The notes under the pieces were generated by a model that ran no database searches, was not told the DNA's origin, and saw only the letters and a list, made by a program, of their open reading frames with translations. Source: Parcubacteria group bacterium (lineage in GTDB: Bacteria > Patescibacteriota > Minisyncoccia > Moranbacterales > GCA-2747515). From it: a stretch of DNA of 64,000 bases. Made by a program: the position numbers and the translations under genes. The first letter of the stretch is position 1, and each line of letters opens with the position of its first letter. Shown in pieces: positions 4,551 through 58,443 of this stretch. The stretch is taken from the NCBI GenBank assembly GCA_041660065.1, contig JBAZXC010000001.1, positions 392,535 to 456,534 on the forward strand. Reading direction: 5' to 3'.

Positions 4551-4568
4551 AATTTGAATTTATTTCAC

Positions 4569-7941: not shown

Positions 7942-7954
7942 CGATACTTCCCAA

Positions 7955-7992
7955 AAAACACCGCCTTTTCTATGTCGGTGTTTTTATTTTGA
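7955..7992 (+). terminator. rho-independent terminator after rpmE
   Basis: Hairpin acaccg...cggtgt followed by a T-run. Confidence 0.5.
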
Positions 7993-8040
7993 CGACGTGA
8001 CCATTGTGCCATATAGTACATAGTAGAAAGAGAAATTGAA

Positions 8041-9132: not shown

Positions 9133-9154
9133 AACTCTTCGGAGATCTTACAAA

Positions 9155-9195
9155 AAAACGCTCCTCCCGTTATGGGAAGGAGCGTTTGTTTTACG
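9155..9195 (+). terminator. rho-independent terminator after prfA
   Basis: aaacgctcctcccgttatgggaaggagcgttt hairpin plus T-run. Confidence 0.55.
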
Positions 9196-9367
9196 CAGTA
9201 TAAAACCTACACACTCATATGATACATGAGGTTGAAAATCAAAACGATCGCAAGAATGACCACAAGAAAAAGATAGATCACTTCTTGTTTCGATTGAATT
9301 ATCCCGTTTGTTTTTTCGTCCAAAAATGTTCGTAATCGATCAAGCATATTTTTTTTATTTTAAAAAA

Positions 9368-9820
9368 TTAAAACCCTGCAAAAACCCTGCACGAAGAACC
9401 ATCTGCCGGCGTCACATCTGTAATAACCTCACATCCGTCTTTTTTGCAACAAAACACTTCAGTGTCATGCGGCGTTGGTGGCACAGCACCATTTGTGCGA
9501 TAAACCGAAAAATAATATTCTCCAGTGCCAGAACTAGATCCTGCCTGCGTAGCATATGCGAAATCCAATTTTGCAAGATCAGACCATTGCGCATCAGAGC
9601 CCTCACAAACAGACCCCTGCAAACCTGGTAAAGATATTTCCTTTTTTACCAATACGCACTCTTCGATCTTTGGAAGTAGCTGACGTGCTTCCGCATAGGC
9701 AGCTGAGCGATTTGCCTTGACCTTTGCTGTGGATAATGCAACCAAAACATTCGCCGCCAACAATCCGATAATTGCCATGATAATTAAAAGCTCAATGAGC
9801 GTAAACCCTTTTTTATGCAT
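9368..9820 (-). CDS. type IV pilin / prepilin-type N-terminal cleavage-methylation domain protein
   Basis: MHKKGFTLIELLIIMAIIGLLA is a class III signal peptide. Confidence 0.8.
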   Translation of the reverse strand: MHKKGFTLIELLIIMAIIGLLAANVLVALSTAKVKANRSAAYAEARQLLPKIEECVLVKKEISLPGLQGSVCEGSDAQWSDLAKLDFAYATQAGSSSGTGEYYFSVYRTNGAVPPTPHDTEVFCCKKDGCEVITDVTPADGSSCRVFAGF

Positions 9821-9868
9821 ACCTTGTCATAAATAATTACTTAAAAAATATCCTTACAAAACATTATA

Positions 9869-14795: not shown

Positions 14796-15713
14796 TTACT
14801 TATTCGACACATACGTTTCCGTTTGTGCCGCCCAGAGAGCTCTGAACACATTGTCTACCTTGAGGGTAGCAATGTAGTCGTAGATCCGCGAGCCATCCCC
14901 GTTAAACATCCAACGGGGATTGAGGATCCTGATGTCAATCAGCTCCTGTTCGTACCAAGCAAGCTTGGTGCCGAATCCGCCTTGGAGATATCCGGAGTCC
15001 TTACCCCAGAGGTACCCGAGATTGGCGTTGAATGTGGGAGTCAGTCTCCAATGATTGACATCATCGAGATACCAGTCATAGAGATCTGCCGACCCAAACA
15101 ACACGAATTGACGATTATCGTACGGGTCATACTTCCCCTTAGAGTCATGATAACTAACATTATAAGGATGGATGTAGTGAATCCCCACTTCCCAGAATGG
15201 AAGAAGTTTCTCACCGGCACCGCGCCCTGACTCATCGCCGTAACGCAGACGAGCCTCGATCTGACTCTCGGTCTGCTGTGAGCTAAGCTTGGAATTCCAG
15301 CTATCAGTTTCCTGACGCAGAATACCCAGCTCTGCTTCGGTTTCGCGATGCCTGTCGTGATGATATACACCACTCACGCCACCGCCAACCGTCCTATAGT
15401 CGGAATTAGACCATTGGCCTTTTTTCCGATCATAGGTGTCAGCACTCCCTTCGGTATAAGTCACATACCCTCCAGCATCCAACTTGCCCATACGGAGTGG
15501 ACGGACACGTGCCTTGATGTTTGTGCTCTCACCATGCCGATCCTTATCCCCTCCACCAAATGGTGAGAACTTGGAATGAGTAATGTCGAAAGCGTCCACG
15601 GATTGTATTCCGCGGAATTTCACTTTCGGCTCCGGCGGTTGCTCTTCATCACCAGCATACGCCGATGATGCAATGAGCAAACACATTGCGATCAAACATA
15701 AAAGTTTTTTCAT
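14796..15713 (-). CDS. secreted beta-rich protein (possible barrel/porin-like), GC-elevated
   Basis: Signal peptide MKKLLCLIAMCLLIASSAYA. Aromatic- and Gly-rich, with alternating-hydrophobic strands. GC is higher than the flanks. Confidence 0.5.
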   Translation of the reverse strand: MKKLLCLIAMCLLIASSAYAGDEEQPPEPKVKFRGIQSVDAFDITHSKFSPFGGGDKDRHGESTNIKARVRPLRMGKLDAGGYVTYTEGSADTYDRKKGQWSNSDYRTVGGGVSGVYHHDRHRETEAELGILRQETDSWNSKLSSQQTESQIEARLRYGDESGRGAGEKLLPFWEVGIHYIHPYNVSYHDSKGKYDPYDNRQFVLFGSADLYDWYLDDVNHWRLTPTFNANLGYLWGKDSGYLQGGFGTKLAWYEQELIDIRILNPRWMFNGDGSRIYDYIATLKVDNVFRALWAAQTETYVSNK

Positions 15714-15718
15714 AATCA

Positions 15719-16366
15719 CTACCTCCCTATTTGTCTTTGATATTCCTTCATAAAATCCCATGTGCTGGCGACTTTGATGACGGCATTGTTTTCCTGTTGT
15801 GCCACTTTAGAAGGCTTTGATACCTTTTGTGGCTTTTCAACAACAGCATCTTTTTTCTCCACCACCTGCACAGTTTTGACAACTGGCGATGGCGAAGGAG
15901 CTAGCGTTTCCGGCTTTGCAATGACAACCTTCTCCGGCGCCCTTGCAATAACCTCTTGCTTTGGCACTGGTGGCGGTTGCACGCGTGGTTGTGCGATCTC
16001 TTGCGAGACTGCACTTCCACGTTGTTCGCCTGCTTCCAGCGTGACGATCTGACGCGTTGCCGCACCGGAACTGTTCACACTGATCGCAAGAGCCGTGATT
16101 GGCACTTCTGTACTTACTGGTGTGATGAGTCGCCACCATGTACGATTTTTTTCATCGTACCCGATGACATCACCTTTCACCGTGTAGCGCACAGATGCAC
16201 TACCGATCTTGCCATTCTTCCACTGCGCTGTATCAGACGACAGGAGCGAACTCCATGCCGACTGCACGACATCAAGACCTTTTAACGTATCTTGCGTCAC
16301 AGTGGCAGCGAGTAGCATGTGTGGCAGAAGCCACACGAGAAAAGATATAACAAGTATTCTTTTCAT
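15719..16366 (-). CDS. secreted protein with Pro-rich C-terminal region
   Basis: Signal peptide MKRILVISFLVWLLPHMLLAA. PPPVPKQ...PSPSPVVK low-complexity linker. Confidence 0.5.
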   Translation of the reverse strand: MKRILVISFLVWLLPHMLLAATVTQDTLKGLDVVQSAWSSLLSSDTAQWKNGKIGSASVRYTVKGDVIGYDEKNRTWWRLITPVSTEVPITALAISVNSSGAATRQIVTLEAGEQRGSAVSQEIAQPRVQPPPVPKQEVIARAPEKVVIAKPETLAPSPSPVVKTVQVVEKKDAVVEKPQKVSKPSKVAQQENNAVIKVASTWDFMKEYQRQIGR

Positions 16367-16367
16367 T

Positions 16368-17387
16368 CTACATCCCTCCTGTCATGTTTTGAATATGGGC
16401 TTTCTGATACATCCCGAGCAGAAGCTCGAACTGTTCAGAAAAATCCTTCCGTTGACACATACCACGAGCCGTCATCGACTCCCATGCCGTGTCCATAAAC
16501 GACGCAATACTGCCATCCACCATACTTGACAGAGCACCCAGCCCCATCAATCCCGGCGTACCACCAAGTGGCAACCGCAACCGTGACACAAATTTCTGCC
16601 ACGGCGTGATAAGGGGGTTTTTGGCAAGCAATTTCTCCATATCCTCTTCGGACAGGTAACTTGCCACAATTTCCCCATCAGGCAACTTCAACTGATATCC
16701 GATGTCAGAAAGCATCTTCTTGCGAAAAGCCTCCCACTTCGGATCACCGTCGACGACAGCAATCTCTTGCACATCATCAGTGGTCATCACAACCCCGAAA
16801 CCTTCAATACGCTTTTTCCACGTATCGTTGATCACAGGAATTGTCTTGCCAAGTTGCTTCATGAGCTCGATCCGATATTTTGGTTCTTTTTCGAATTTCG
16901 CCCAATCATAGGTTTGCTCATCTACGATCGTGTACTCGTACCCAGGTACGGCACCGATCGGAGACGCCAGCCACACGCCACCATCCTTATTGGTAACTGC
17001 AAAAGCGTATTCACCGCGTAACATATCATCCTTGTCACCAAGGCCAACACACTGCGCAGGGATCATCGCCCACGGATTTTTGTCACCAAATGCCTGACTC
17101 GGCACAGAATAACAAAATCCCTTGACCATCGGTGCATTTTCATCTTTCAATGACACACCGACGAATGGGAATACACCCGAGAATGACTTATCCATCTCGA
17201 CAAGAAATCGCGATGGTACAACACCGGTAAAATTAAAAATTTTACCACCGGCTTTTTCCAGCTGGTCGGGATGCATTACCGTCATCCCTTGCTCTGGTTG
17301 TGTAAGTGCAAAATTTGGCATTTGACTAGCACAGCCAGTCAAAAACAAAAACCCTAAACAAATAGAAATCACTGTGATATTTTTCAT
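16368..17387 (-). CDS. lipoprotein (hypothetical)
   Basis: Lipobox LFLTGCAS after a signal peptide. 2-nt gap to the downstream gene. Confidence 0.55.
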   Translation of the reverse strand: MKNITVISICLGFLFLTGCASQMPNFALTQPEQGMTVMHPDQLEKAGGKIFNFTGVVPSRFLVEMDKSFSGVFPFVGVSLKDENAPMVKGFCYSVPSQAFGDKNPWAMIPAQCVGLGDKDDMLRGEYAFAVTNKDGGVWLASPIGAVPGYEYTIVDEQTYDWAKFEKEPKYRIELMKQLGKTIPVINDTWKKRIEGFGVVMTTDDVQEIAVVDGDPKWEAFRKKMLSDIGYQLKLPDGEIVASYLSEEDMEKLLAKNPLITPWQKFVSRLRLPLGGTPGLMGLGALSSMVDGSIASFMDTAWESMTARGMCQRKDFSEQFELLLGMYQKAHIQNMTGGM

Positions 17388-18162: not shown

Positions 18163-19035
18163 TCAAGGGGCTCTGGGAAGGCTTTTCTTGAAAACCAGTG
18201 ACTCACTGCTTTTGGGCACTGTACTCACTGGCACCGTTGATGTCGGCGATCCGCTGATGATAAAGAGAGAAATCGTATCATAACTCCCTCGATGATCAGT
18301 GAATGGCTCTTGTGTACCTGGCTCAAACACTTGTTTGTAACTTTCGCCAGGATATGTCAACTCTGGTAATTTTGCCAAAATAGTGGTTTCGTTACCATAA
18401 TTGTGCATACAACTACCATCCGGCCATGCGCGAGGATAAAAAACCCCTCCACTCACACGACCACGCTTAGCTTTGTACTGAATGCCCTTTGATTTTGTCG
18501 GGCGATACTGCACTTCGATAGCATCAGCGCCATTTGGTTGCAACGCCATGATCGCATCTGGTACACGTCCGCTGAACTCACCTTCATCACACGTCGCCAC
18601 AATTGCAGCGGATGCAGGATGTTTCACAGCAGGCGTCGGTGGTGGTGCAACGGAAACTGTTGTAGTAACCAGTGGCTGTAAAGCCTCACCCCATACACGC
18701 TTGAATTGACTGCCCTGTGTCGGACAAACATCAAGCAGGGTTAATCCTGATTGAGGATTTTTGAGATAATTCTGCAATTTGCGCAGAAGCTTATCACTGA
18801 TATCAATATTTTCCTTGCCACCAGGTCCGGTAATGATCACCGTTCGACCTGTTCCCGATACTCGCACAATTTCCGTGCCGATCGTGAACGATCGAGTAAG
18901 TTTTGCGGCAACATCACCGCGTTGCTTTTCTGCAACAATTGTGACTGTTCTCGCCGCATACGCCGATCTGGCCATGCCAACTAACAGCACACAAAACAAC
19001 ATTACAATACATACACGCCACGTTTTCATACCCAA
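18163..19035 (-). CDS. secreted protein (hypothetical)
   Basis: Signal peptide ending in SAYAARTV. No recognised domain. Confidence 0.5.
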   Translation of the reverse strand: MGMKTWRVCIVMLFCVLLVGMARSAYAARTVTIVAEKQRGDVAAKLTRSFTIGTEIVRVSGTGRTVIITGPGGKENIDISDKLLRKLQNYLKNPQSGLTLLDVCPTQGSQFKRVWGEALQPLVTTTVSVAPPPTPAVKHPASAAIVATCDEGEFSGRVPDAIMALQPNGADAIEVQYRPTKSKGIQYKAKRGRVSGGVFYPRAWPDGSCMHNYGNETTILAKLPELTYPGESYKQVFEPGTQEPFTDHRGSYDTISLFIISGSPTSTVPVSTVPKSSESLVFKKSLPRAP

Positions 19036-28144: not shown

Positions 28145-29002
28145 TCATTTTCTCTGTAGTATTTTCCTCCCTATTGCCTCTATACCTAAGCCAATAAGAA
28201 AGCAACAGGTGGAGATCATGATAATGAAAATAACATAATTATTTATTGCCGCATTTTCCCATCCTATACGAGCGGCAAAAACACTTGAGTAGCCACTCAT
28301 GATCAGTCCACAATACGCACCAATAACCGCCCCAATCCAACCAAGAACAGAAGCGCCGACTACGATTCCAAAAAGAAGACTGACGATCATAGCCAGCAAA
28401 CAACCGTTAGTGGCATAATGTACCCCAAGATATGCCCCGCCTAAAACAACAAGTGGCATGCCTACATAAAAAATCAACAAACGCTTAGTGTGTCGCGTAA
28501 AGACCATTATAAACAAAAGGATAACGACCACATCTCGAAAAATTACTTCTGACAGAATTGCATCCCCGATCATGGCAGGTGAAGATTCTTTGGTTACAGA
28601 AATTTTTTTCTCCTCATTCAAGACAAACTTCCATTTTTCAAATGATGTCTCAACCTTAAGAGGATGATGCCAAAAATACACTTTTTTTACATTTTCATCT
28701 GTCCAACCATAATAACCATGCGTTGGCAGAAACTCTGAAATTTCCCCCTTGACCAATCGACTTAATTCCATCTCATAATGACTGGCTTTGATCTTTTCCA
28801 CATCGACCGATGCATCAAAGATATCTTTATACGTCTCCAGGATCTTTGGCTTTGCCGGCAATGCATAAACCACCAAATCATTGCCATCGATCTCCACTTG
28901 CGGATAAAGATATTCGTCCGGAACGGCATCAGCAATGGAAATCGCGATATTGCACATACTTACGATAACTACCAAGACCATCAATGCGATTATTCTTTTC
29001 AT
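28145..29002 (-). CDS. hypothetical protein with N-terminal extracytoplasmic domain and C-terminal polytopic membrane domain
   Basis: Start MKRIIALMVL preceded by ggaggaagg. Four or more C-terminal TM helices. Confidence 0.45.
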   Translation of the reverse strand: MKRIIALMVLVVIVSMCNIAISIADAVPDEYLYPQVEIDGNDLVVYALPAKPKILETYKDIFDASVDVEKIKASHYEMELSRLVKGEISEFLPTHGYYGWTDENVKKVYFWHHPLKVETSFEKWKFVLNEEKKISVTKESSPAMIGDAILSEVIFRDVVVILLFIMVFTRHTKRLLIFYVGMPLVVLGGAYLGVHYATNGCLLAMIVSLLFGIVVGASVLGWIGAVIGAYCGLIMSGYSSVFAARIGWENAAINNYVIFIIMISTCCFLIGLGIEAIGRKILQRK

Positions 29003-29105
29003 CTTTCCTTCCTCCAGTTTTTTATGTAGGATTTTCATCACTGTAGTTGACAAGGTACTTCGACGGAATATAGCACAAATTTTAATTTTTGTCAAGCCAC
29101 TTTTT

Positions 29106-29174: not shown

Positions 29175-29867
29175 TTATTTGAATTGCGCTTCGCAATCGA
29201 TCTTGTCTTGTCCGGAAAGCATGTTACAGATCTGTTTCATGTCCACACCGCCACCCGCACCAGCACCCTCTTTTACCGGAGCGCTCATTTGTTCCATCAT
29301 TGCGCTGAGATCTGTGAATGTCACATTCGTCGGCGGGACAAATAGCGTCGCATCTGCATTCCATTTCTCGCAATCATAATTGTATTTCGCATTCATATCC
29401 ATTGCACCGTCACCTTTTATGTCCCCAGTATTTTCCTTTTGGATATTTCCTGCCGCTTTTGCGAGGTCTTCTTTTTCCATCTTCATCTTTGTGCCTTGTA
29501 GAGATGTTGACGTCCACATATATAACCATGTTCCATCGCTGATCGCATATGCCTCACCGATCTCCCCATTCACACCAACGGGCATATTCATCGTCTTACT
29601 GTTCATTTTTTCCCCATCAACATAGGTGATCCCACTCATACCGCTCTCGCCATCCTCCCATGTACATTTCACCGCGCCACCCATGAGCATGATGTCTTTG
29701 ATGCTTCCTGTCACTTTTTCACTTCCTTCTTTTACCTCTGCCACTTTTTGTTGTGCGGTATTTACCGTTTCCTGTATTTGCTCCTGTGCCGGCAATTTTG
29801 CACTGCATGCACTCAACATGATCACTGCTCCAAAAAGCATTGTCATGACAACGATATTCTTTTTCAT
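29175..29867 (-). CDS. lipoprotein (hypothetical)
   Basis: MKKNIVVMTMLFGAVIMLSACSA lipobox. Confidence 0.5.
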   Translation of the reverse strand: MKKNIVVMTMLFGAVIMLSACSAKLPAQEQIQETVNTAQQKVAEVKEGSEKVTGSIKDIMLMGGAVKCTWEDGESGMSGITYVDGEKMNSKTMNMPVGVNGEIGEAYAISDGTWLYMWTSTSLQGTKMKMEKEDLAKAAGNIQKENTGDIKGDGAMDMNAKYNYDCEKWNADATLFVPPTNVTFTDLSAMMEQMSAPVKEGAGAGGGVDMKQICNMLSGQDKIDCEAQFK

Positions 29868-30202: not shown

Positions 30203-30916
30203 CTAACTTGCGCAACACGCAGACGGACGGTCGGCAGCATACCGAAGGCCAAGCCAAAAGTGGTTCCATGTCCACGTGCCATCATCGCCCCGAAGGAGAA
30301 ACAGAACATAGCGCCAGCCATTCGAATCGCGAAGAATAAGACCAGAAAAGTCCAGAAAAGTGATTCCGAAATTCTGGTAGAGCCACTCGAGAGCGCCATT
30401 GATCCCATTTTCCTGATAATCTTCCCAAATGGCGAGAAAAACATTTCCTCCAAATCGGATGAGATCTGACTTTTTTTCTTTCAGACGACGGATTTTTTCC
30501 TCGCAATCGATCGATTTTTCCTTTGTCCGAAGACATGTCTCAAAAACAAACTTTGTGAGTTCAATCTCAGTGAGAGTCTCTGATCGCGGATCGACATCTC
30601 TCTCGCCGGTAAGTCCGTCACCATCAGCAGACCCCTTCCAGACAGTCCAACCTTTACCGAGAAACTCAGTTGGGTCAAACGGTTTGGTCAGGAGCAACTT
30701 TGAGTTATTGATAGTAAGACGAAATCTATTTTCTATAAAAGCAGCAAACAGCTTTCCTTTTTGATCTGGCGGAAGGTCAATAAAAGGCTGAACATCAACC
30801 TTAATTTTGTCCCACGGAATATCAACAGAAAATGATGCAATTAAACTGCGAGCTTGACCACCAGAGATAGCTTTACCCATGACAATTCTCCTCTTTACAT
30901 GTGCGCTTGACCACAT
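30203..30916 (-). CDS. hypothetical protein (GC-elevated; 3' end ambiguous, overlapping alternative frames)
   Basis: 237-aa ORF. Likely start MGKAISGG. The C-terminal 80 codons overlap ORFs that are open in two other frames. Confidence 0.35.
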   Translation of the reverse strand: MWSSAHVKRRIVMGKAISGGQARSLIASFSVDIPWDKIKVDVQPFIDLPPDQKGKLFAAFIENRFRLTINNSKLLLTKPFDPTEFLGKGWTVWKGSADGDGLTGERDVDPRSETLTEIELTKFVFETCLRTKEKSIDCEEKIRRLKEKKSDLIRFGGNVFLAIWEDYQENGINGALEWLYQNFGITFLDFSGLILRDSNGWRYVLFLLRGDDGTWTWNHFWLGLRYAADRPSACCAS

Positions 30917-37452: not shown

Positions 37453-37932
37453 TCAACGCCCCCTCATGCCGGCAACACGACTGACACTAGCGCCCCCACC
37501 CAGCCGTGATGACAAATTGCGATTTGCACCGATGTTCAAATTCATATTCGTCAATGGTTTATGAGCAAGTGATGACGGTTTGACAATGGGATTTTTTTGC
37601 ATATCGGTTTTTTCTAGTGACATTTTCGGCGAGCAGTGTTTTTTTTCAATTCTTCCAAGATCAAAACTTTCCGCGATTGCATCAATACCCTTGCGGTCAA
37701 AATGATGTTCTCCATACTTATGATCTGCCAGGATCGTCTTTAGTTCTTTTTTTGTCACATTATTATCGCGCACATTCTTTAGTTCTTGAAAAATTTCTTT
37801 GGTCCGCGCATCACGATTGAAAACCGAATGGCGCGTATCACTTTCCTTTAATACATCTATTACATCACTGGTATGCATATTGCCACCAAATAATGTATTT
37901 TTCTTAAAAATCACTTTTTTATCATCTTTCAT
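37453..37932 (-). CDS. hypothetical protein
   Basis: 159-aa ORF. No recognisable family. Confidence 0.35.
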   Translation of the reverse strand: MKDDKKVIFKKNTLFGGNMHTSDVIDVLKESDTRHSVFNRDARTKEIFQELKNVRDNNVTKKELKTILADHKYGEHHFDRKGIDAIAESFDLGRIEKKHCSPKMSLEKTDMQKNPIVKPSSLAHKPLTNMNLNIGANRNLSSRLGGGASVSRVAGMRGR

Positions 37933-38009: not shown

Positions 38010-39923
38010 TTACTCAATTATCGCTTTGATCCTCCGGACACCTGCGCTGGACGATTCTTCTTTCTTGATCTTGAATACACCTTTGATATCTCCCGTATTG
38101 GTCACATGGGGACCACCGCAGATCTCATTGGAGAATCCTTCCACAGAATATACTTTCACCACATCACCATATTTATTTTCAAAAGCACCTTCCGCCCCAC
38201 TCGCTTTGGCGTCGTCCAAGCTCATTTCTTTCATCACCACCGGCACCTTTGCGTGAATTGCCTCATTGACATAATCCTCTACAGCCTTTTTTTGTCCATC
38301 GGTCATTTTCTCCGAATGGGAAAAATCAAAACGTACACGCTCCCCGTTGATATTGGATCCCTTCTGATGCACGTGTTCACCGAGAACTTTCCGCAACCCA
38401 GCTAGCATCAAATGAGCCGCAGTGTGCAACTGCATCGTTTCTTCTTTATTATCAGCCAAACCACCCTTGAACATACCCGCACTTGCCGTACGTGAAAGTT
38501 CTTGATGTTTTTTTAATTCTTCTGAAAATTCTTTTTTTAATAACTCCTTCTGTTGATTATTTATTTTTTTTCCTGCTATTTCTTCCAACTCTTCCAGTGT
38601 CATTTCCAAAGGAAAACCATAACTTTGGTAAAAATCAAAAAGCCATTTACCTCTTTTTGTCTCAGGTAGCATTTCTGTATTTCGATTTTCTTCATCATAC
38701 AAAAATAATATTTTATACTTTTCTTTAATTCTAAAACGTTGTTTTTTGATTTCTTTTATTCCTCTTTCTATAGTTTCTCTAAATTTCTCCTCCTCCTTTC
38801 CCAGTGCAGCCAAAATATTATCATCCAAAATTTCCGGATAAATTTCACCATAAATTATCTGTACCACTTTGGCAATTTCTACGGTAAAATTATTTTTAAT
38901 ATCTAAAAAATGACCTTGTCTCACAGCGCGACGAATTAACCGACGGAGAATATAACCTCGTCCTGTGTTTTCTGGAGTTACTCCATCGGCAATAATAAAA
39001 ACACTTGCCTTAATATGATCAGCAATAATTCGCATCGCGCGCATATCGCCAATCCAACATTCTGGCATTTCATCAAAACCTAAATCACCTTTTTTAAAAG
39101 AATATTTTTTTCCAGAGAGTTCTTCAATTTTTTCAATTATTGGGACAAACAGACTAGTTTGATAATTATCACTGAGACCGTTGATAGCGGATAACACACG
39201 AATGAGCCCCATCCCCGTATCAACATTTTGACTGGCCATTTTTACATATTCACCTTTTTCATTTTTGTGATATTCCATGAAAACATCATTCCAGATCTCC
39301 ACCCACAGATCATTGTCATCGTTAAAACTCTTCGGAACATCATTTGCATCCCCTACCCAATAAAACATTTCCGTGTCCGGTCCACAGGGTCCAGTCTCTC
39401 CTGCAGGTCCCCACCAATTATTTTTGCGTGGTAACTTGGCAATTCTTTCGATCGGCAAACCATTTGCGTCAAATATCTCTTTCCATAATCCATATGCCTC
39501 ACTGTCAAAAGGAATTTCACTGGAAGTCCCTTCATTTTCTCCCGTAAATACCGAAACAGCAATTCTGTTTTTATCAAGCCCCAACCATTCTGAAGATGTC
39601 AAAAACTCCCAACTCCATTGAATAGCATCTTTTTTGAAATAATCTCCCAGCGACCAATTCCCCAACATCTCAAAAAAAGTATGATGTGTCGCATCTCCCA
39701 CTTCATCAATATCGATAGTACGAATGCATTTTTGCGCATTTGCCAATCGCGTCCCTTCAGGATGCTTTTCCCCCATCAAATATGGCACAAGCGGATGCAT
39801 CCCCGCTGTGATAAAAAGCGTGGTCGGATCATTTTCCGGCACGATCGACGCTGATGGAATGATCCTGTGTCCTTTGGATTGAAAAAATTCCAAATATTTT
39901 TTTCGTAATTCTTCTGCTTTCAT
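38010..39923 (-). CDS. alaS: alanine--tRNA ligase (short form lacking C-terminal C-Ala domain)
   Basis: Class II catalytic core (FFEMLGNWSLGDYFK), tRNA-recognition domain, and editing domain (HTAAHLM...H, CGGPHV). Only 637 aa, with a Lys/Glu-rich insertion. Confidence 0.8.
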   Translation of the reverse strand: MKAEELRKKYLEFFQSKGHRIIPSASIVPENDPTTLFITAGMHPLVPYLMGEKHPEGTRLANAQKCIRTIDIDEVGDATHHTFFEMLGNWSLGDYFKKDAIQWSWEFLTSSEWLGLDKNRIAVSVFTGENEGTSSEIPFDSEAYGLWKEIFDANGLPIERIAKLPRKNNWWGPAGETGPCGPDTEMFYWVGDANDVPKSFNDDNDLWVEIWNDVFMEYHKNEKGEYVKMASQNVDTGMGLIRVLSAINGLSDNYQTSLFVPIIEKIEELSGKKYSFKKGDLGFDEMPECWIGDMRAMRIIADHIKASVFIIADGVTPENTGRGYILRRLIRRAVRQGHFLDIKNNFTVEIAKVVQIIYGEIYPEILDDNILAALGKEEEKFRETIERGIKEIKKQRFRIKEKYKILFLYDEENRNTEMLPETKRGKWLFDFYQSYGFPLEMTLEELEEIAGKKINNQQKELLKKEFSEELKKHQELSRTASAGMFKGGLADNKEETMQLHTAAHLMLAGLRKVLGEHVHQKGSNINGERVRFDFSHSEKMTDGQKKAVEDYVNEAIHAKVPVVMKEMSLDDAKASGAEGAFENKYGDVVKVYSVEGFSNEICGGPHVTNTGDIKGVFKIKKEESSSAGVRRIKAIIE

Positions 39924-39943: not shown

Positions 39944-40195
39944 TTATCTAAAATACTCTTTCTTTAACTTTGTGGTCACATCGCGGAAATCACTGATGAG
40001 CAAACCCGCACTCTTTAATCGATCGTCCAAAAGTGAATAGTTTGTCATGACTGCATCGAATTCTTCCTCATTAGACGTTTTTTCCAATTCTTCGCTACAT
40101 GATCTCAACGTATAAAGCAGTGATGATGGAATCTTTTTTTCTTTGGCGTCAAAAATTTCCTCGATCATTTCATGTAATGTTTTTTCTCTTTTCAT
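39944..40195 (-). CDS. hypothetical small protein
   Basis: 83-aa ORF. Confidence 0.3.
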   Translation of the reverse strand: MKREKTLHEMIEEIFDAKEKKIPSSLLYTLRSCSEELEKTSNEEEFDAVMTNYSLLDDRLKSAGLLISDFRDVTTKLKKEYFR

Positions 40196-40205
40196 AGATA
40201 ATTGT

Positions 40206-40481
40206 TTACGATAAATCGATCAAACTCTTTTTGAGATGACGCAACTCATCGGTTATAAATGTCGTGCGATCCACCATTGTCCGTGTTTCTTCCTTATTCT
40301 CCTTGATATACATTTCAAGTCTGCTCCGCTCGTCTTCCAAGCGTCGCAGATCATCTTTCAATTCACCTTGGCGACGTTCCAATTTTTTGAGATCGGATTG
40401 ATATGAAATCTGCTGCATCATCAGCTGTCGCCTCTTTTTTGAACGATCTTCCTCCGTCATGTCCCGTGTATCCGTATACAT
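40206..40481 (-). CDS. hypothetical coiled-coil protein
   Basis: 91 aa. Charged heptad-like repeats. Confidence 0.35.
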   Translation of the reverse strand: MYTDTRDMTEEDRSKKRRQLMMQQISYQSDLKKLERRQGELKDDLRRLEDERSRLEMYIKENKEETRTMVDRTTFITDELRHLKKSLIDLS

Positions 40482-40595
40482 AATTGTGTCTCACACTCAA
40501 TAATTATTCCCCCACAGTATTATGATACGACAAAACACTGTGGAATTCAAGTGATTTCACTCTATTGAAGAAAAAGCTTATGTCAATCAAAGATA

Positions 40596-42374
40596 TCATT
40601 CCGTATCCTTGCGTGTTTTGTCAATCAGACTTCTCACCGATTGCAGATCCACTGACGGTTTTTTGGACGAGTGTTGAAATTTCTTTGGAGCCACATGCTG
40701 CAATCGTGACAGACTCATCGTTTTTTCCCCCGTGGACAAGATGATATCCTCTTCAACGATTTCTTTTTTTTCCACCGGTGGTTTTTTTTGATATGGTTTT
40801 TTTTGTGGAGATTCACCCGCATTTCCTTGCACTTTTGCCACTACACGCTGATGATCTTTGAAGCATTCTTTGCAAAAAACAGGACGATTACCATCCGGCT
40901 TGAACGGTACCTGAATCGCCAAATCACATGTTGCACACACAGCATCATATATTGGTTTATCCACTACAACCGCGTTATTCTCATTATTGACGACAATGCG
41001 TGGTTCCTCGCTTTTTGTTGCCGGAATAACTACAGTCGTTGTTTCTTGCGGATTTCTCACAACACTTTTTTCTCCAGCATCACTTTGTGGTGTTGCCGTC
41101 ACGACCATGCCACTCCATCGTGCAATTTTTTCTTCCACTTCTTTCTTGTCTTGCGAATATCGTTCTCGTGACACCTTGATCACTTTTTCCGTACTATCCT
41201 CAAATCTTCTTTCAATCGGAGGCAACGTCGTTGCGCTAAAAGCATCGCCTGCAATACCATCGATCATCAACTTCAAATAGATATTGAATTTTGGCAAATT
41301 CACGATATCATTCATTGTGAAGATCGGTTCAAATTCTTTCTCCAAATATTCCGCATCCGCCGCGCCAACACGAAACGATACCAACGTCCCGACGTTTCCA
41401 AAAATTGCATCACGCACCACTTCTTCCAACTGTGTGATATATTGATTTGCCAATATGAGATTCAAACGATACTTACGCGCCTCGGACAAGATGTTCGCAA
41501 ACGATTCTGTTGAAAAGTTTTGAAACTCATCCACATATAGATAAAAATCCTTACGATCACCCTCTTCCATATCCACACGAGCCATTGCGGCAAGCTGGAT
41601 CTTTGTGATAAGCATCGCACCGATAAGCGCGCTATTGTCTTCACCGATCCGCCCCTTGGACAAGTTGAGTATGAGGATCTTTCGTTCATCCATGATCGTT
41701 CGCACGTCAAATGCTGATTTCGTTTGTCCGATAATATTACGAATGATCGGATTTGTAATAAATTGTCCAACTTTATTTTGGATCGGCGAGATCACTTCCT
41801 GCAAAACACGCTCATTCCATTTGGGAAATTCTTCCGCCCAAAAAGCCTTTACTACAGGATCTTGGATGTGATTGACAACACGAATGCGATACTTTTTGTC
41901 CACCAAGATACGCATAACGCCGAGTAGCGTGCTACCCGGGTATTCCAATAGCGCAAGGATCGCATTGCGTAAAATATATTCCAATCGCGGGCCCCACGAA
42001 TCCGCCCATAATTTCTGGAAGACGCCAATCATACCTGACGCAACCAACGGGCGAAATTCCGGAGCAACCTCCTCCATAACATTGAATGAGATCGGAAAAT
42101 TTTGATCCGCGGGATTGAAATAGATCACATCATTAATGCGGTTCGGCGGGATCATACTGATCAACTTTTCAGCAGTGTCCCCATGCGGATCGATAAAACA
42201 CACACCATGCCCATTGAGAATATCTTGCACAGCAAGATTTTCCAGCATATTTGTCTTTCCCATACCGGTCTTACCAATAGCATACATATGTCTGCGACGA
42301 TCATCAGTTTTGATACCAAATGCTGCTCTTCTGTTGCGAAAATTTGTTTCTGCAAATGCTGTAATTTCACTCAT
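40596..42374 (-). CDS. type IV secretion coupling-protein-like ATPase (TraD/TraG/VirD4 family) with C-terminal zinc ribbon and Lys-rich tail
   Basis: Walker A GKTGMGKT. DPHGD box. Walker B with a TraG-D_C-like pattern (YLYVDEFQNF...RKYRLNLILANQYITQL). CxxC-x17-CxxC ribbon. No N-terminal TM anchor. Confidence 0.55.
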   Translation of the reverse strand: MSEITAFAETNFRNRRAAFGIKTDDRRRHMYAIGKTGMGKTNMLENLAVQDILNGHGVCFIDPHGDTAEKLISMIPPNRINDVIYFNPADQNFPISFNVMEEVAPEFRPLVASGMIGVFQKLWADSWGPRLEYILRNAILALLEYPGSTLLGVMRILVDKKYRIRVVNHIQDPVVKAFWAEEFPKWNERVLQEVISPIQNKVGQFITNPIIRNIIGQTKSAFDVRTIMDERKILILNLSKGRIGEDNSALIGAMLITKIQLAAMARVDMEEGDRKDFYLYVDEFQNFSTESFANILSEARKYRLNLILANQYITQLEEVVRDAIFGNVGTLVSFRVGAADAEYLEKEFEPIFTMNDIVNLPKFNIYLKLMIDGIAGDAFSATTLPPIERRFEDSTEKVIKVSRERYSQDKKEVEEKIARWSGMVVTATPQSDAGEKSVVRNPQETTTVVIPATKSEEPRIVVNNENNAVVVDKPIYDAVCATCDLAIQVPFKPDGNRPVFCKECFKDHQRVVAKVQGNAGESPQKKPYQKKPPVEKKEIVEEDIILSTGEKTMSLSRLQHVAPKKFQHSSKKPSVDLQSVRSLIDKTRKDTE

Positions 42375-42416
42375 AAATACACATTAAATTACTATTCTAC
42401 GATTATACCAGCTTTA

Positions 42417-43685
42417 TCACCCAAACGGAAGATTGCTTGGTGCACTACCACGACGAGAATCCGTCCATCGCACACCCGGTGCGGCAACCGACATATCCGG
42501 CAAATGAAACACCGTTGCCAATTCCTCCGTACTAAGATGAAACTGATACCCCGTATCATCACGATCGCGATAGCGTTCGAGGATCTTGCGCATACGATAT
42601 GCCGATCGGCTCTCTGTAAACACATAATCCGCATACACCTTTGAGCGATCAACAGGAACAAATTGGTTGGTATGGTTGTCAGAAAATTGTTTGATCGAAG
42701 ACATCGCACCGGACAACATCGTTGCTGTAAAAAAATCTTTCTTTCCCACAACAACTAATCGCATATTGACTTGAAACATCGCCTTTGCAATATTTTCTTC
42801 GAGAGATTTCAACGTTTGTTTTTCTCCCGGCGTCAAGCGAAACTCCAAGGGACCCTCCTCTTTTTTTTGTTCGCCAAAGGGCGTAAACTCCGGCGGTTGA
42901 AACAATCCTGTAAACAGATTGCCAAAAACATCTTTTATATCATGAAACACACGATCAAAAATACTTTTTGGTTTTGCCTTCTTTCCTAAAAATTCTTGTA
43001 CGGTGTCCTTGCCCCAACTATCAAACCAGTCCGGACGATCTGTCTGAATGATATATTGCAACCAGATATGTTGTCCCGGACCCAATACACTGATCGACTC
43101 CAAAATACTCGCAAGCGGATCAATCATCTTTCCTGTGACGTCTTCTTCGAAATATTTATATGTTTTGATCGGATATGCGTCTGCTTTTAATAATTTGAGA
43201 TCAAAGCCCTTGAGCGTCCATTCCTTATTTGGGATTACACGCGGAATTTTATATACATAATCTTCCACCTCCATGATCTCGAGACCGGGATATTGTGCAT
43301 AGAGAGAACTTTCCACAAGTGAGCGAAAAATACCTGGCGTTCGAATATAGAAATGTGCCACACCCTCCGTGCCAACGATCTCCAAACTAAAAAATGGATT
43401 TTGTGCACAATGGCAATATTTGTTGATCATGTTAACGCCCGCATCTGTTGCCGCAATACTGTCAAAAAATCGCTCCATGATCTTTGGGCTTTTTTCTATA
43501 TCGCGTGGAGCAAAAAGCTCCAATAACACTTCATTTTGACTGCCCAAAAAATCCTTGATACACACATAGCGCATCCATAAACTGCGAAAAATCAAATAAA
43601 AAGTCACCGGTATGGCAATATACCAGGTCATGTGAAATACATATAGTAGTTGAGAAAAAAATTCTATCATGAAAACGCTGATCAC
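42417..43685 (-). CDS. hypothetical membrane protein (2 N-terminal TM helices + large soluble domain)
   Basis: 422 aa. Immediately upstream of the ATPase on the same strand. Confidence 0.4.
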   Translation of the reverse strand: MISVFMIEFFSQLLYVFHMTWYIAIPVTFYLIFRSLWMRYVCIKDFLGSQNEVLLELFAPRDIEKSPKIMERFFDSIAATDAGVNMINKYCHCAQNPFFSLEIVGTEGVAHFYIRTPGIFRSLVESSLYAQYPGLEIMEVEDYVYKIPRVIPNKEWTLKGFDLKLLKADAYPIKTYKYFEEDVTGKMIDPLASILESISVLGPGQHIWLQYIIQTDRPDWFDSWGKDTVQEFLGKKAKPKSIFDRVFHDIKDVFGNLFTGLFQPPEFTPFGEQKKEEGPLEFRLTPGEKQTLKSLEENIAKAMFQVNMRLVVVGKKDFFTATMLSGAMSSIKQFSDNHTNQFVPVDRSKVYADYVFTESRSAYRMRKILERYRDRDDTGYQFHLSTEELATVFHLPDMSVAAPGVRWTDSRRGSAPSNLPFG

Positions 43686-43724
43686 ATATGATCACATATT
43701 ATCCATCACAGAATTATTATAGCA

Positions 43725-44789
43725 TTATTTACGCTTCGTATCTAGAGTATATTTTTTGTTGAGTTTTTTTGCAACCGCATTCAGATTTACCTTGATCGTT
43801 GACGGTTTGACATAACGCATTGTCAATACGCGCTCAACCACTTCCTCTGCTGTAAGAGGTTCATCAGAGTTGTTCAATACATTTTCAATCACATCTTTCA
43901 CCGTTCCTTTAATATAGCTCTCCGTATTAAGCGCGTAAACGCCACGTCCAACCAAGACGAAATTTTTATCACGGATCAACTCGTTATGCACTGTTTGTGG
44001 ATGAGATTTTTTTCCTTTTTTCCCAAGTCCGTAGTGATCGATCGCTTCTGCAATCTCGCGAAAATGCATCGGTTTGTTTTGCTCTTTCATAATGAGCAAC
44101 GCTTTCTCACGCACACCGCGCGGTGATACATCATCCCATTCAACAATCCCCCATTTATCAAATGGATTTTTCCCAATTTCACGTGAAACAATGAGATATT
44201 TTATCAGCTGATCATGGTCAATATTTTCGTGTGTAGATGCAACATGTTTATGAATATGATCGATCGTATGCACTTTTTGTTGCGCCTCTAATAGTTCTTT
44301 GACGAGATTATGCACAGCAAACCACTTTTCCACATCAAAATCAGCGTGCATGACAACGCGCTCTTCAACCGGATACTTCTTTACATTCACAAACTCCACA
44401 TCTGTTAAACCCTCTATAAAAAAACGCACAGAGCCTCGTGAAGAATATTCTTCTCCACCAAGAAAATCAATGATCGCATTCTCTGCAACAATGCCATGAT
44501 GCTTTTGCACAAAATCCGTAATTGCATTTTGTACCATTTCCAGATCATCATGCTCTTCGACATCCCGCATACTTTTAAGACCGGATTGGACAATTTGTCG
44601 CACCCTCTCTCTCGTAATGTTATATTCATCACCGATTGCCTGCAATGTCAGAGGTTTTTTTTCTGTTACACCAAATCGTTTTGCAATGATATCCTGTGAT
44701 CTTTCCGGCAAATGACTTAAAACAGCACGAAAAACGCCGTGCAAATCAATGTGTTCTTTTTTTTCATCATTTTTCATATAATTCCTCAA
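43725..44789 (-). CDS. DNA-binding protein with N-terminal sigma-70 region-4-like HTH and C-terminal HARE-HTH-like domain
   Basis: LPERSQDIIAKRFG...LQAIGDEYNITRERVRQI is region-4-like. C-terminal PMHFREIAEAIDHYGLGKKGKKSHPQTVHNELIRDKNFVLVGRGVYAL is HARE-HTH-like. Confidence 0.45.
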   Translation of the reverse strand: MRNYMKNDEKKEHIDLHGVFRAVLSHLPERSQDIIAKRFGVTEKKPLTLQAIGDEYNITRERVRQIVQSGLKSMRDVEEHDDLEMVQNAITDFVQKHHGIVAENAIIDFLGGEEYSSRGSVRFFIEGLTDVEFVNVKKYPVEERVVMHADFDVEKWFAVHNLVKELLEAQQKVHTIDHIHKHVASTHENIDHDQLIKYLIVSREIGKNPFDKWGIVEWDDVSPRGVREKALLIMKEQNKPMHFREIAEAIDHYGLGKKGKKSHPQTVHNELIRDKNFVLVGRGVYALNTESYIKGTVKDVIENVLNNSDEPLTAEEVVERVLTMRYVKPSTIKVNLNAVAKKLNKKYTLDTKRK

Positions 44790-45032
44790 TTAATAACCGA
44801 TAAAAAACGCTTAAATATTCCATTACTAATGCAACTTTTTCATAAAAACGAGAAAGAAACACCTATAAGGACCGGTTGTTTATTATAATACAAAAATACT
44901 ACTATGCCAAGTCCTTCCTTTCGTCTTTATGCATAATTTTTATACTTCGTGCCATTCTACCAAATATTTGATTTTTTGTCAAGTTTTCCGTCCCGTGATA
45001 TACTGTACGTGTAATTAATAAATATAAAGAAT

Positions 45033-56979: not shown

Positions 56980-58443
56980 ATGAAAACCCCTATTTCACGA
57001 CGTATTTTCTTTTGGATCCTTTTTGTTTCCTATTTTGTCACAACAGCATCCGTGCTTTTCTTTGTCTTTGGCTATCGCCATGATTTTGCACAAAAGATAT
57101 TTGTGCACACAGGTTCGATCACGGTAAAAGCGAACCCCAAAACCATTTCCGTATATGTAGACGACCGCGCACCTCAATCGAAACTGATCAATGTCATCAA
57201 TGATTCTTACTACATTAGTGGCATCCGCCCAAAAACACACACCCTAAAAGTTTCTGCCGAAGGATTTAGAACATGGGAAAAATCAGCCATTGTACATAGT
57301 GGCCTCTCCACAGAATTTTGGAACATTACACTGTTGCGCAACGCTTATGAACCAACAAGCTATGCTATTTCTGATATCGATCAATTTTTTCCTGCTCCGG
57401 ATGAAAATCTCTTTGCCTGTTCAAAACAAATTGGCAAAGTGCAAACTGTCCACATTTTCGATGCAAAAAAAGATGAAACCACAAATACCTTTCTTTTTAT
57501 GCAAAAAAAATTCACAGCAAATACACGTGAAAATATCGAGTGGTCACCAAACAGTCATGAGCTGATTATTCCTCTTGAAGATATTGAAAATTCCTCCAAC
57601 AAGGACTATGCGATCGCTTATAGTAAAACGAATGACTCATTTCTCCTCTCGGAAAAAATCTCTCTTGGTCAGTTACAATCGGTACGCTGGGATCCCAAAG
57701 ATCGCAACGCTCTTTTTTTCCTTGCTCAAAATAAGTTATGGCGAGCACAAATAGATGACGAGAATACTGTCGTTCCGGAAATTGTTGCCGACCGCGTACT
57801 CGCTTATGACTTTACCGATGACGGTCTCTATGTGTTTACAAATGAATACGCTGTGCTTCATGACCGAGATATCAATGGAAAAAATTTGGAACAAATCACT
57901 GCTTTTGATATTCTACAAGGAGCAACAAGCATTCGCCTTGACGCTTATGATACACATCGCATTGCCGTTTTGGATGACACGAATAAAACTGTATACATAT
58001 ATAACAAGGGCGAGCGCAATATTTACAATAAGAAAATCGGATCGGATATTATTGGCGCAAATTTCTCAGATGATGGGAAAAAATTGTTGTTTTATTCTCC
58101 TTTTGAGATCTTTGTCTATTTCACACGTGATTGGGATGCACAACCTGTACGACAAGAGGATGATGCGCACTCCATTGTACGATTTTCACAATTTATCAAT
58201 AATGTACATTTTGCGAAAGATTATGAACACGTCATTTTTACAATCAACAATGATATTAAAATTACCGAACTAGACTATCGTGGCAGTCGTATCACAGACA
58301 CAATTATCTCACTCAATGAAAAAGAAACCAAAGTGATCGACAAGCAAAAAATGGATCGACTTTATTTCATTGATTCTTATGACACAGTCAGACGAGGATT
58401 GCGCTCGATCGAATTTCCCGAAAAAGAAAGTCTTATATTCTAA
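56980..58443 (+). CDS. hypothetical membrane-anchored protein with PEGA-like and beta-propeller-like regions
   Basis: N-terminal TM. The KTHTLKVSAEGFRTWEK segment is PEGA-like. The rest is beta-rich. Confidence 0.4.
   Translation: MKTPISRRIFFWILFVSYFVTTASVLFFVFGYRHDFAQKIFVHTGSITVKANPKTISVYVDDRAPQSKLINVINDSYYISGIRPKTHTLKVSAEGFRTWEKSAIVHSGLSTEFWNITLLRNAYEPTSYAISDIDQFFPAPDENLFACSKQIGKVQTVHIFDAKKDETTNTFLFMQKKFTANTRENIEWSPNSHELIIPLEDIENSSNKDYAIAYSKTNDSFLLSEKISLGQLQSVRWDPKDRNALFFLAQNKLWRAQIDDENTVVPEIVADRVLAYDFTDDGLYVFTNEYAVLHDRDINGKNLEQITAFDILQGATSIRLDAYDTHRIAVLDDTNKTVYIYNKGERNIYNKKIGSDIIGANFSDDGKKLLFYSPFEIFVYFTRDWDAQPVRQEDDAHSIVRFSQFINNVHFAKDYEHVIFTINNDIKITELDYRGSRITDTIISLNEKETKVIDKQKMDRLYFIDSYDTVRRGLRSIEFPEKESLIF

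Follow-up and report, generated by a model that had tools for sequence, protein, structure and literature searches.

We analyzed a 64,000-nucleotide stretch of DNA (the window) from a Parcubacteria group bacterium (GenBank assembly GCA_041660065.1, contig JBAZXC010000001.1, positions 392,535 to 456,534 of the forward strand). Our subject is a cassette of three genes on its minus strand, encoding a helix-turn-helix (HTH) protein, a protein of the Pfam family DUF8128 (PF26449) and an ATPase. With moderate confidence, we read this cassette as a domesticated, split type IV coupling protein (T4CP) translocase made up of DUF8128 and the soluble ATPase, with a dedicated DNA-binding partner, which most likely moves DNA together with a Patescibacterial type IV secretion system (T4SS). 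That the motor belongs to the T4CP family and has DUF8128 as an integral partner is a part of this reading that we hold with considerable confidence, and DNA is a plausible substrate; whether the motor still serves a Patescibacterial T4SS or pumps DNA independently of one is close to an even choice.

The 592-aa ATPase is an intact P-loop protein of the VirD4/TrwB clade that lacks a membrane segment, and it is not FtsK, HerA or VirB4. DUF8128 is its obligate genomic partner, and in relatives the two form a single polypeptide. Together with the HTH gene they make a chromosomally fixed three-gene unit in the Patescibacterial loci sampled. The genes and their main features are as follows.

43725..44777, minus strand: HTH gene, 350 aa from the ATG at 44777 (the listed open reading frame (ORF) begins at a TTG at 44789)
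42417..43670, minus strand: DUF8128 (PF26449) gene, 417 aa from the ATG at 43670 (a longer ORF runs to 43685, 422 aa)
40596..42374, minus strand: gene of the T4CP-like (VirD4/TrwB-type) ATPase, 592 aa, soluble, core at residues 1-425
42252..42275, minus strand: Walker A codons (GKTGMGKT, residues 34-41), from the translation; invariant in 21 homologues
41514..41534, minus strand: codons of the Walker B region (VDEFQNF, residues 281-287), from the translation; invariant in 21 homologues
40851..40952, minus strand: treble-clef zinc finger CxxC-x17-CxxC (residues 475-508; PF23477, TIGR04272)
40599..40721, minus strand: Lys-rich C-terminal tail with the motif LSxxQxxxAPKKF...VDLxxVRxLI (residues ~552-592), from the homologue alignment

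The start codons of the DUF8128 and HTH genes are likely the ATGs at 43670 and 44777, which match the public gene calls and the lengths of homologues.

The coupling-protein-like ATPase

Three T4CP families of Pfam scored above their curated cut-offs on the 592-aa protein, namely TrwB_AAD_bind (42.9 bits, cut-off 20.5), TraG-D_C (28.1, cut-off 22) and T4SS-DNA_transf (21.1, cut-off 20.1). The HerA/DUF87 score was below its cut-off (20.0 vs 23.2 bits), and FtsK_SpoIIIE, the motor domain family, gave no match at E ≤ 0.1. Hidden Markov model searches therefore favored T4CP families over FtsK and DUF87/HerA, in line with the TraD/TraG/VirD4-like assignment in a first-pass annotation of this DNA. 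With NCBIfam, TraD/VirD4 models ranked at the top and VirB4 models at the bottom, all of them far below their equivalog cut-offs (SXT_TraD 47.5 vs 366 bits, conj_TOL_TraD 30.9 vs 647, TraD_Ftype 13.9 vs 521 and conju_CD1115 34.1 vs 250). The VirB4 model TIGR00929 scored 12 vs 643 bits, well short of what a VirB4-type C-terminal ATPase domain calls for.

A PDB search found TrwB and DotL as the only solved structures related to the ATPase by sequence. Using hhalign, a profile of 21 ATPase homologues was aligned with TrwB over residues 118-394 (96% probability, E 3.8e-9, 264 columns), whereas its alignment with VirB4/TrwK reached 4% and covered the Walker A region only. The AlphaFold2 (AF2) model of the ATPase, although of low quality, places a helical block (residues ~105-230) between Walker A and Walker B. 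Foldseek matched this model to DotL, TrwB and Cagbeta, then to HerA and then to the VirB4 C-terminal domain, with no FtsK structure among the 50 matches listed.

The translation holds a Walker A (GKTGMGKT, 34-41), a DPHGD box (62-66), a Walker B (YLYVDEFQNF, 278-287) and the segment RKYRLNLILANQ (300-311). Walker A and DPHGD are invariant in the 21 homologues, as are Walker B and RKYRLNLILANQ apart from L279, R303, I307 and L306, confirming the motifs and the TraG-D_C signature that had been read from the letters. No transmembrane (TM) segment was found in the ATPase, the top 19-residue Kyte-Doolittle window being an internal helix of the ATPase fold, which agrees with the earlier claim that it has no N-terminal TM anchor.

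Downstream of residue ~425 the protein continues with a variable linker, the zinc finger, a Lys-rich linker and a conserved terminal motif. The zinc finger matched PF23477 (E 1.4e-13) and TIGR04272 (52.6 bits, cut-off 36) and falls in the zf_Tbcl_2 family; its four Cys are invariant in the 21 homologues. In the tail P563, K564, K565 and F566 (APKKF) are invariant, and the linkers flanking the zinc finger differ among homologues in both length and sequence. The CxxC...CxxC ribbon and Lys-rich tail of the first-pass annotation are thus real features, with a family match and a conserved end motif. Small Methanosarcina proteins of this zinc-finger family bind zinc (PMC12704099).

DUF8128 and its fusion to the ATPase in relatives

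The public gene call of the protein encoded directly upstream of the ATPase carries PF26449, as do 120/120 of the homologues listed. Our local Pfam, NCBIfam, PADLOC and PDB profile searches returned nothing for this protein; the local Pfam was silent because the copy searched lacked the PF26449 model. Searching 1.84 billion cluster representatives with a profile recovered 2,924 representatives of the family at 50% clustering, and cluster look-ups of divergent ones gave labels of Parcubacteria or Patescibacteria only, plus one 'Verrucomicrobiae'. A literature search found no paper naming DUF8128 or PF26449.

DUF8128 has a single N-terminal hydrophobic helix followed by an alpha/beta domain of ~370 aa. 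Two N-terminal TM helices had been proposed for the 422-aa form, which we did not find: the AF2 model (pLDDT 72.9) shows one continuous helix over residues 2-47, and across 71 homologues the hydropathy peaks numbered 0-1, never 2. As basic residues come after the helix, the body of the protein is predicted to be cytoplasmic.

When the DUF8128 model was searched against the PDB with Foldseek, the top 14 matches were all TrwK/VirB4 chains (E 6e-6 to 5e-3, TM-score about 0.35), TrwK being the VirB4 of plasmid R388. P-loop ATPases besides TrwK were absent from the 50 matches listed, with no 4ag5, TrwB or HerA among them. The ATPase model, unlike the DUF8128 model, matched 4ag5 (the VirB4 C-terminal domain only), TrwB and HerA. 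Because these three are missing from the matches of DUF8128, we take its likeness to be to the non-ATPase N-terminal half of VirB4. Among viral structures (BFVD), the model matched gp156 of Bacillus phage G (E 2.5e-17), a 913-aa protein of the SPO1-like phage JL (E 4.7e-14), and gp155 of phage G, a VirB4-like ATPase (E 1e-7). We treat the predicted resemblance of DUF8128 to the VirB4 N-terminal domain as a structural lead only. A link to VirB4/TrsD at the sequence level was set aside, as hhalign against TrwK, pSK41 TrsD and pSK41 TrsE found nothing.

Both proteins occur as parts of one polypeptide in phage and plasmid relatives. In PHROG 5156, a phage family of unknown function with 824 positions, DUF8128 covers positions 61-357 (E 4.9e-11) and the ATPase 405-806 (E 1.3e-63). 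The 825-aa gp156 of Bacillus phage G likewise takes in both, its residues 30-165 aligning with the profile of DUF8128 (96.7%, E 3.3e-10) and its residues 379-781 with that of the ATPase (99.9%, E 1.9e-33). An 883-aa protein of a Shouchella clausii plasmid matched DUF8128 at residues 56-311 (250 columns, 97.5%), with the ATPase behind. On the megaplasmid of Natrinema sp. SYSU A 869 (NZ_CP082248) there are two genes: the first encodes a hypothetical protein of 382 aa with full-length homology to DUF8128 (96.7%, 308 columns), including the C-terminal ELAxxxHxP motif, and a T4CP-like ORF follows directly after it (99.7%, hhalign). By BLAST, the long plasmid and phage proteins are much closer to the ATPase (E 1e-39 to 1e-58) than TrwB is (2e-5).

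Because the pair is fused in relatives (phage G/PHROG 5156, Shouchella) and adjacent on the haloarchaeal plasmid, we regard DUF8128 and the ATPase as one functional unit. The suggestion that the upstream protein is a split membrane anchor fared well as to the split, which the natural fusions and the Natrinema pair bear out, and less well as to the anchor, since its predicted VirB4-N-terminal-domain-like domain of ~400 aa is more than a mere TM anchor. Among the long proteins whose N-termini were compared, the DUF8128-like N-terminus is sequence-significant for gp156, PHROG 5156 and the Shouchella protein. A fusion at the sequence level was rejected for SPO1 gp27.4, 0105phi7-2 gp32 and the Embleya protein, where alignments were short, not significant and partly collinear (SPO1, Embleya). 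For the SPO1-like phage JL the fused form is backed by structure only, through the BFVD match. The gene orders around these relatives are as follows.

Natrinema megaplasmid: TrbL/VirB6-like, 1105-aa 'conjugal transfer protein' (VirB4-like), DUF8128, T4CP
Bacillus phage G: TrbL_4/VirB6-like (gp153), gp154, VirB4-like P-loop protein (gp155), gp156
Embleya linear plasmid: PrgI family, XF1762 family, VirB4-like, 812-aa T4CP, Replic_Relax relaxase, NlpC/P60
B. subtilis and Shouchella plasmids: long (883-913 aa) protein, Replic_Relax, conjugal-transfer genes (TcpE on the B. subtilis plasmid), large ATP-binding protein
Phage SPO1: gp27.4 (906 aa), then gp27.3, a Replic_Relax protein

From these contexts we take the module to be the coupling protein of monoderm/archaeal conjugation-type systems. 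The Firmicutes, Actinobacteria and archaeal relatives agree with the placement of Patescibacterial VirB4, which nests in the monoderm/archaeal MPF_FATA class according to a 2025 survey (PMC12102498).

Several further observations were made on these replicons. A T4CP-like protein of ~810-910 aa directly followed by Replic_Relax (PF13814) recurs as a two-gene module (SPO1 2744-6281, Shouchella 6026-9573, B. subtilis 6011-10102 and Embleya 5777-9295, in the coordinates of the examined stretches), and SPO1 gp27.3 is annotated as 'replication initiation by nicking'. Jumbo phage G (NC_023719; examined stretch 771-6335) carries a T4SS-like inner-membrane set, gp153-gp156, that includes the fused DUF8128::T4CP. 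The closest ATPase homologue in the plasmid collection is at 7983-9170 of the examined stretch of Sulfitobacter mediterraneus plasmid NZ_CP081110 (42% identity, E 9e-99). It is 395 aa long, comprising the core only, with no DUF8128-size gene annotated beside it, and is flanked by transposase genes downstream and a recombinase gene ~1.3 kb upstream. This copy suggests horizontal transfer into an alphaproteobacterium.

The conserved cassette and its candidate role

A genome scan seeded with DUF8128 gave 80 loci; gene neighborhoods were counted over 81 loci and identities calculated over 71. The 80 loci are mostly labeled Moraniibacteriota, with others labeled Paceibacterota, Pacebacteria, Parcubacteria or Patescibacteria group. 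The ATPase gene lies directly downstream of DUF8128 in 80/81 loci and the HTH gene directly upstream in 79/81. Searching from the HTH side, the trio was found in two of three loci, amid DnaX/DivIC or SecDF/aminoacyl-tRNA synthetase/MnmA genes, and the third genome keeps an HTH gene that is unlinked. In the 71 loci the gaps run from -4 to ~390 nt between DUF8128 and the ATPase and from 19 to 229 nt between the HTH gene and DUF8128, mostly <130 nt; at the present locus they are 42 and 54 nt, respectively. Pairwise identities average 77% in the ATPase core, compared with 50% in DUF8128 and 43% in the HTH protein, and the ATPase shows strong purifying selection.

The window is core chromosome of a Patescibacterium, with nearly all genes on the minus strand. 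MraZ, RsmH, a penicillin-binding protein, Mur ligases, a short alanyl-tRNA synthetase (AlaRS), a CMD-family gene and the ATP synthase operon are the neighbors of the cassette. AlaRS, ATP synthase and MraZ flank it only in the closest relatives (AlaRS in 31/81 loci, MraZ in 3/81); flanks in general are housekeeping genes, which change between genomes while the trio stays intact. The 'orphan' label of the first-pass annotation is therefore misleading, given that the cassette is conserved in the loci sampled and that VirD4-like genes occur in 2,918/3,035 Patescibacterial genomes (PMC12102498). That annotation had also named universal conservation in the lineage with a known function as grounds for dropping its proposal; we found the conservation, and not the known function.

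About two dozen locus records bear titles such as Micavibrio, Bdellovibrionales or Pseudobdellovibrionaceae, and the cluster look-up added the Verrucomicrobiae label. The 'Micavibrio sp.' locus has the gene order of the window, with 74-92% identity for the majority of its proteins (AlaRS 61%, a 159-aa ORF 42%). Titles of Micavibrio, Bdellovibrionales and Verrucomicrobiae on metagenome-assembled genome (MAG) records bearing the cassette are probably wrong. In GCA_942490825.1 no HTH gene adjoins the DUF8128-ATPase pair, and a homologue is on another contig amid glycosyltransferase and ABC genes. MAG SIF170217_bin_259 has two contigs, each with a DUF8128-ATPase-HTH trio, which could be paralogues, strain heterogeneity or an assembly duplicate.

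The HTH protein matched Sigma70_r4 at residues 23-75 (E 4.6e-15) and HARE-HTH in two C-terminal stretches (E 4.1e-17), so Pfam confirmed both domains proposed earlier. The HARE-HTH winged helix is the fold of RNA polymerase delta. The N-terminus is nearest to region 4 of group-1 (primary) sigma factors (PDB profile E 3e-14, with many SigA/RpoD structures at ~1e-14). Conservation is concentrated at residues 25-62 and 205-290, the middle being poorly conserved, and the conservation profile contains no catalytic-looking motif. We rejected three assignments: a sigma-70 factor, as the protein has region 4 only, with no region 2/3, and sigma equivalogs were far below their cut-offs; RNA polymerase delta (RpoE), as TIGR04567 scored 36.5 vs 42 bits although the HARE-HTH domain is present; and a degenerate Replic_Relax relaxase, as there is no similarity and no conserved catalytic motif. 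To judge from its domains, this protein may be either an operon regulator or a DNA-recognition adaptor for the motor.

In the mechanism that we propose, DUF8128 would be anchored in the membrane via its single N-terminal helix, with its large domain in the cytoplasm. The part resembling the VirB4 N-terminal domain would dock the ATPase, substituting for the N-terminal TM domain of a classical T4CP. A TrwB-like ring of the ATPase would thread a polymer using ATP, while the zinc finger and Lys-rich tail might grip nucleic acid or an adaptor, and the sigma-region-4/HARE-HTH protein might recognize the DNA substrate or regulate the operon. The substrate would most likely be DNA, moved in either direction, by import from the host or by export, and the partner machine would most likely be a monoderm-type T4SS whose genes lie elsewhere in the genome.

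The Pfam scan of window ORFs detected no VirB4, VirB6 or relaxase. Likewise tblastn with reference VirB4, VirB6 and Replic_Relax proteins, a search of limited sensitivity, found nothing in the window or in ~6 kb around 84 loci. Both results agree with the first-pass annotation, which had seen no VirB4 or relaxase in the window, and its view that this is not an obvious conjugative element fits the changing housekeeping flanks and the lack of relaxase, VirB4 and integrase. An integrated conjugative or mobilizable element, remnant or active, with a classical coupling protein serving a relaxase, would account for the homologues on Firmicutes, Actinobacteria and haloarchaeal plasmids, which adjoin Replic_Relax and VirB4/VirB6-like genes. 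We nevertheless consider it very improbable here. Neither the window nor the 84 related loci yielded a relaxase, integrase, VirB4 or VirB6, the housekeeping flanks differ between genomes around an intact trio, and GC is flat across the cassette (0.40-0.42, the same as in the surrounding chromosome). The strong purifying selection on the ATPase also argues against such an element, as does the scarcity of relaxases in Patescibacteria (109 in 3,035 genomes; PMC12102498).

The 2025 survey reports 5,713 VirD4-like T4CP homologues in 2,918 of 3,035 Patescibacterial genomes, about two per genome, with only 148 of the 5,713 near virB4, and VirB4 itself in 2,417/3,035 (T4CP homologues 96% vs VirB4 80%) (PMC12102498). 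In Southlakia epibionticum the t4cp homologue is non-essential for epibiotic growth, and other T4SS genes are essential (PMC12102498, citing its ref. 37); from this non-essentiality the survey authors raise exaptation. As this survey catalogued it, the orphan coupling protein is not new. Its obligate partner DUF8128, and what DUF8128 resembles, appear undescribed before; the survey's sections on VirB4 distribution, T4SS repertoire and chromosomal context name neither the DUF8128 partner nor the fused relatives, and mention no zinc finger or HTH neighbor (PMC12102498).

These data allow another account, in which the split T4CP has been exapted as a T4SS-independent housekeeping pump, an FtsK/SpoIIIE/TraB-like dsDNA translocase for chromosome clearance or for cell-to-cell DNA movement via a simple pore. 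The HTH protein would then act as a sequence reader, like the FtsK gamma winged helix or TraB clt recognition; the anatomy would be the same and the partner machinery would differ. The highly conserved ATPase core, the housekeeping setting with dcw genes adjoining in the closest relatives, and the lack of any T4SS gene within ~6 kb in 84 loci all suit it, and so do the spread of T4CP homologues beyond VirB4 and the exaptation suggested by the survey authors (PMC12102498). The SPO1 906-aa protein fits too: its gene is part of a replication/partition module, and the ~9.4 kb examined there have no annotation of a T4SS-like gene. However, the ATPase has no FtsK_SpoIIIE match and a HerA/DUF87 score below cut-off, its Natrinema, Embleya, Shouchella and B. 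subtilis plasmid relatives are in conjugation-type clusters (with VirB4/VirB6 and/or relaxases), and the dcw proximity is confined to the closest relatives (MraZ in 3/81 loci). Overall we think this account unlikely.

Our preferred reading, a T4CP-derived motor working with a Patescibacterial T4SS, draws on ancestry and on all of the plasmid relatives; spread wider than that of VirB4, the lack of linkage and the transposon-sequencing (Tn-seq) result point away from a T4SS role. Several points weigh against this reading. No link of the cassette to a T4SS was seen in Patescibacteria, and the presence of T4CP homologues in more genomes than VirB4 (96% vs 80%), with the Southlakia non-essentiality, favors a T4SS-independent or dispensable role (PMC12102498). 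Orthology of the DUF8128-linked ATPase with the 5,713 catalogued genes and the Southlakia gene is an assumption. The likeness of DUF8128 to the VirB4 N-terminal domain comes from structure alone, at a TM-score of ~0.35 with a model of pLDDT 73, and the ATPase was modeled poorly (mean pLDDT 58). The zinc finger and basic tail are no proof of DNA binding, and the breadth of the sample is bounded by its Moraniibacteriota, Paceibacterota, Parcubacteria and unclassified Patescibacteria labels.

A defense-associated ATPase, as part of an anti-phage system, had also been suggested. PADLOC mad8 (MADS, PDLC04140) matches the ATPase (E 6.1e-15, profile positions 26-264 of 314), there are weak HerA/DndH matches, the HTH N-terminus is like the sigma part of MzaA, and an AIPR/Hypoth_Ymh pair occurs elsewhere in the window. 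However, the PADLOC matches cover generic ATPase and sigma-region-4 parts only, so that nothing beyond P-loop-level matches supports the ATPase as a defense protein; mad8 may be in the same T4CP-like ATPase branch, abundant on Streptomyces plasmids. No MADS, Mza, Dnd or HerA-partner gene (NurA, nuclease, Sir2, methyltransferase) is adjacent, PADLOC gave no match for DUF8128 or the two small downstream ORFs and no complete catalogued system, and the AIPR pair is 37 kb distant. The cassette is in all related loci retrieved, vertically stable and among housekeeping genes, unlike defense islands. We judge a defense role extremely improbable.

More speculatively, and as a rather improbable extension, DUF8128::T4CP may be an ancient branch with a VirB4-like N-terminal domain, intermediate between VirB4 and VirD4, which in Patescibacteria became a split, zinc-finger-tailed, HTH-partnered, domesticated DNA motor. 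Classical VirD4 would later have exchanged the VirB4-like domain for a simple TM anchor, and the motor could possibly pull host DNA into nucleotide-auxotrophic epibionts.

Patescibacteria account for much of bacterial diversity, are host-attached and have no nucleotide synthesis of their own. Their exchange of macromolecules with hosts is an open question, and their near-universal orphan VirD4-like ATPase had been noticed and left unexplained. The constant DUF8128 and near-constant HTH gene make this a three-protein unit for deletion, pull-down and imaging, and give the Pfam family DUF8128 a functional context. A structural link is suggested between VirB4 and VirD4, the two principal families of T4SS ATPases, and the same module is flagged in Bacillus phages (G, SPO1-like).

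The remaining features around the cassette are as follows.

44882..44982, minus strand: two promoter-like sites, each with 11/12 consensus matches, located 5' of the HTH gene in a divergent intergenic region (consensus scan only)
40512..40543, no strand assigned: inverted repeat with 13-nt arms just 3' of the ATPase stop codon (weak evidence)
40206-40481, minus strand: small ORF cc91, 91 aa, coiled-coil-like
39944-40195, minus strand: small ORF cc83, 83 aa, coiled-coil-like

The five ORFs named in the first-pass annotation, these two included, are all on the minus strand at the coordinates it gave. Pfam found only sub-threshold coiled-coil-type matches on cc91 and cc83. Because they are detectable in only 11/81 and 6/81 related loci, respectively, they are lineage-specific neighbors outside the conserved unit. 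It is possible that the transcription unit ends at the 40512..40543 hairpin, although the terminator scan gave this repeat no score; the scan found no terminator-like site between the three cassette genes. A search for repeats resembling an origin of transfer (oriT) or operators found just short AT-rich palindromes and the hairpin after the ATPase gene, none of them convincing.

Elsewhere in the window, Hypoth_Ymh (286 aa) and AIPR abortive-infection (409 aa) proteins are encoded at 1813-3969 (minus strand), in the part with the lowest GC (0.34-0.36) and beside a tRNA cluster at 4117-5215. The pair looks like a small defense islet by tRNA genes. At 4117-4176 (minus strand), a 60-nt tRNA-like match in Rfam scored 32.6 bits, just over the gathering score, with no call by ARAGORN, and may be a truncated or degenerate tRNA. 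The AlaRS gene at 38010-39923 (minus strand) encodes 637 aa only, which looks short for this enzyme, and so it may lack a C-terminal extension. Eight sizeable ORFs of the window have no Pfam family at E ≤ 1e-4, among them the 159-aa ORF that separates MraZ from AlaRS and is shared by five of the related loci.

14796-15761, 16368-17387, 18163-19035, 28145-29095, 29175-29867, 30203-30916 and 37453-37932, minus strand: ORFs with no Pfam family
56980-58443, plus strand: ORF with no Pfam family

Comparison with known systems

The classical T4CPs (TrwB of R388, VirD4, TraD, DotL and Cagbeta) share with the present ATPase a P-loop domain, probably also with helices inserted between its Walker motifs, and the likeness is seen in the T4CP Pfam families above cut-off, the TrwB alignment by hhalign (96%) and the top structural matches. 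The differences lie in the surroundings of this core. Classical T4CPs have a TM domain on the same polypeptide, whereas here the ATPase lacks one and a separate 417-aa DUF8128 protein is found instead. Their tails are acidic or TraM-binding, and here the tail is a treble-clef zinc finger with a basic end. They are associated with relaxase/T4SS genes, none of which are nearby here, where the gene is chromosomal and conserved in the sampled lineage. The orphan VirD4-like genes of the survey, reported in nearly every genome and rarely by virB4 (PMC12102498), are very probably the same gene set as the ATPase described here, although we infer this.

In the long T4CP-like proteins (gp156/PHROG 5156 and the Shouchella 'DUF87' protein) the two modules are in the same order as here and are fused, whereas here they are two genes. 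This group of 812-913 aa also lists SPO1 gp27.4, the B. subtilis plasmid 'DUF87' protein and the Embleya T4SS-DNA-transfer protein. The genes of the long proteins neighbor Replic_Relax, and on plasmids conjugal-transfer genes too, with no sigma-r4/HARE-HTH neighbor. In our alignments their ATPase-matching region ends before the zinc finger, and none of the four fused proteins scanned with Pfam has a match to a zinc-finger family. The Natrinema pair, in comparison, is split, adjacent and in the same order as here, with full-length DUF8128 homology, but it is plasmid-borne, lies after VirB6-like and 1105-aa VirB4-like genes and has a longer ATPase ORF (~850-900 aa).

VirB4 (TrwK) and CedB/CedD may share one plan with DUF8128 plus the ATPase: a membrane helix, a VirB4-N-terminal-domain-like domain and an ATPase of the FtsK-HerA superfamily. 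The ATPase half here differs in being VirD4-clade by sequence and structure ranking, not VirB4/HerA-clade, and CedD matched the ATPase solely at Walker A (25 bits vs a cut-off of 600). CedB and CedD of the Sulfolobales, the latter in Saccharolobus, have this plan and are needed for DNA import (PMC11868833). Outside VirB4, CedB/CedD are the nearest functional precedent for the plan.

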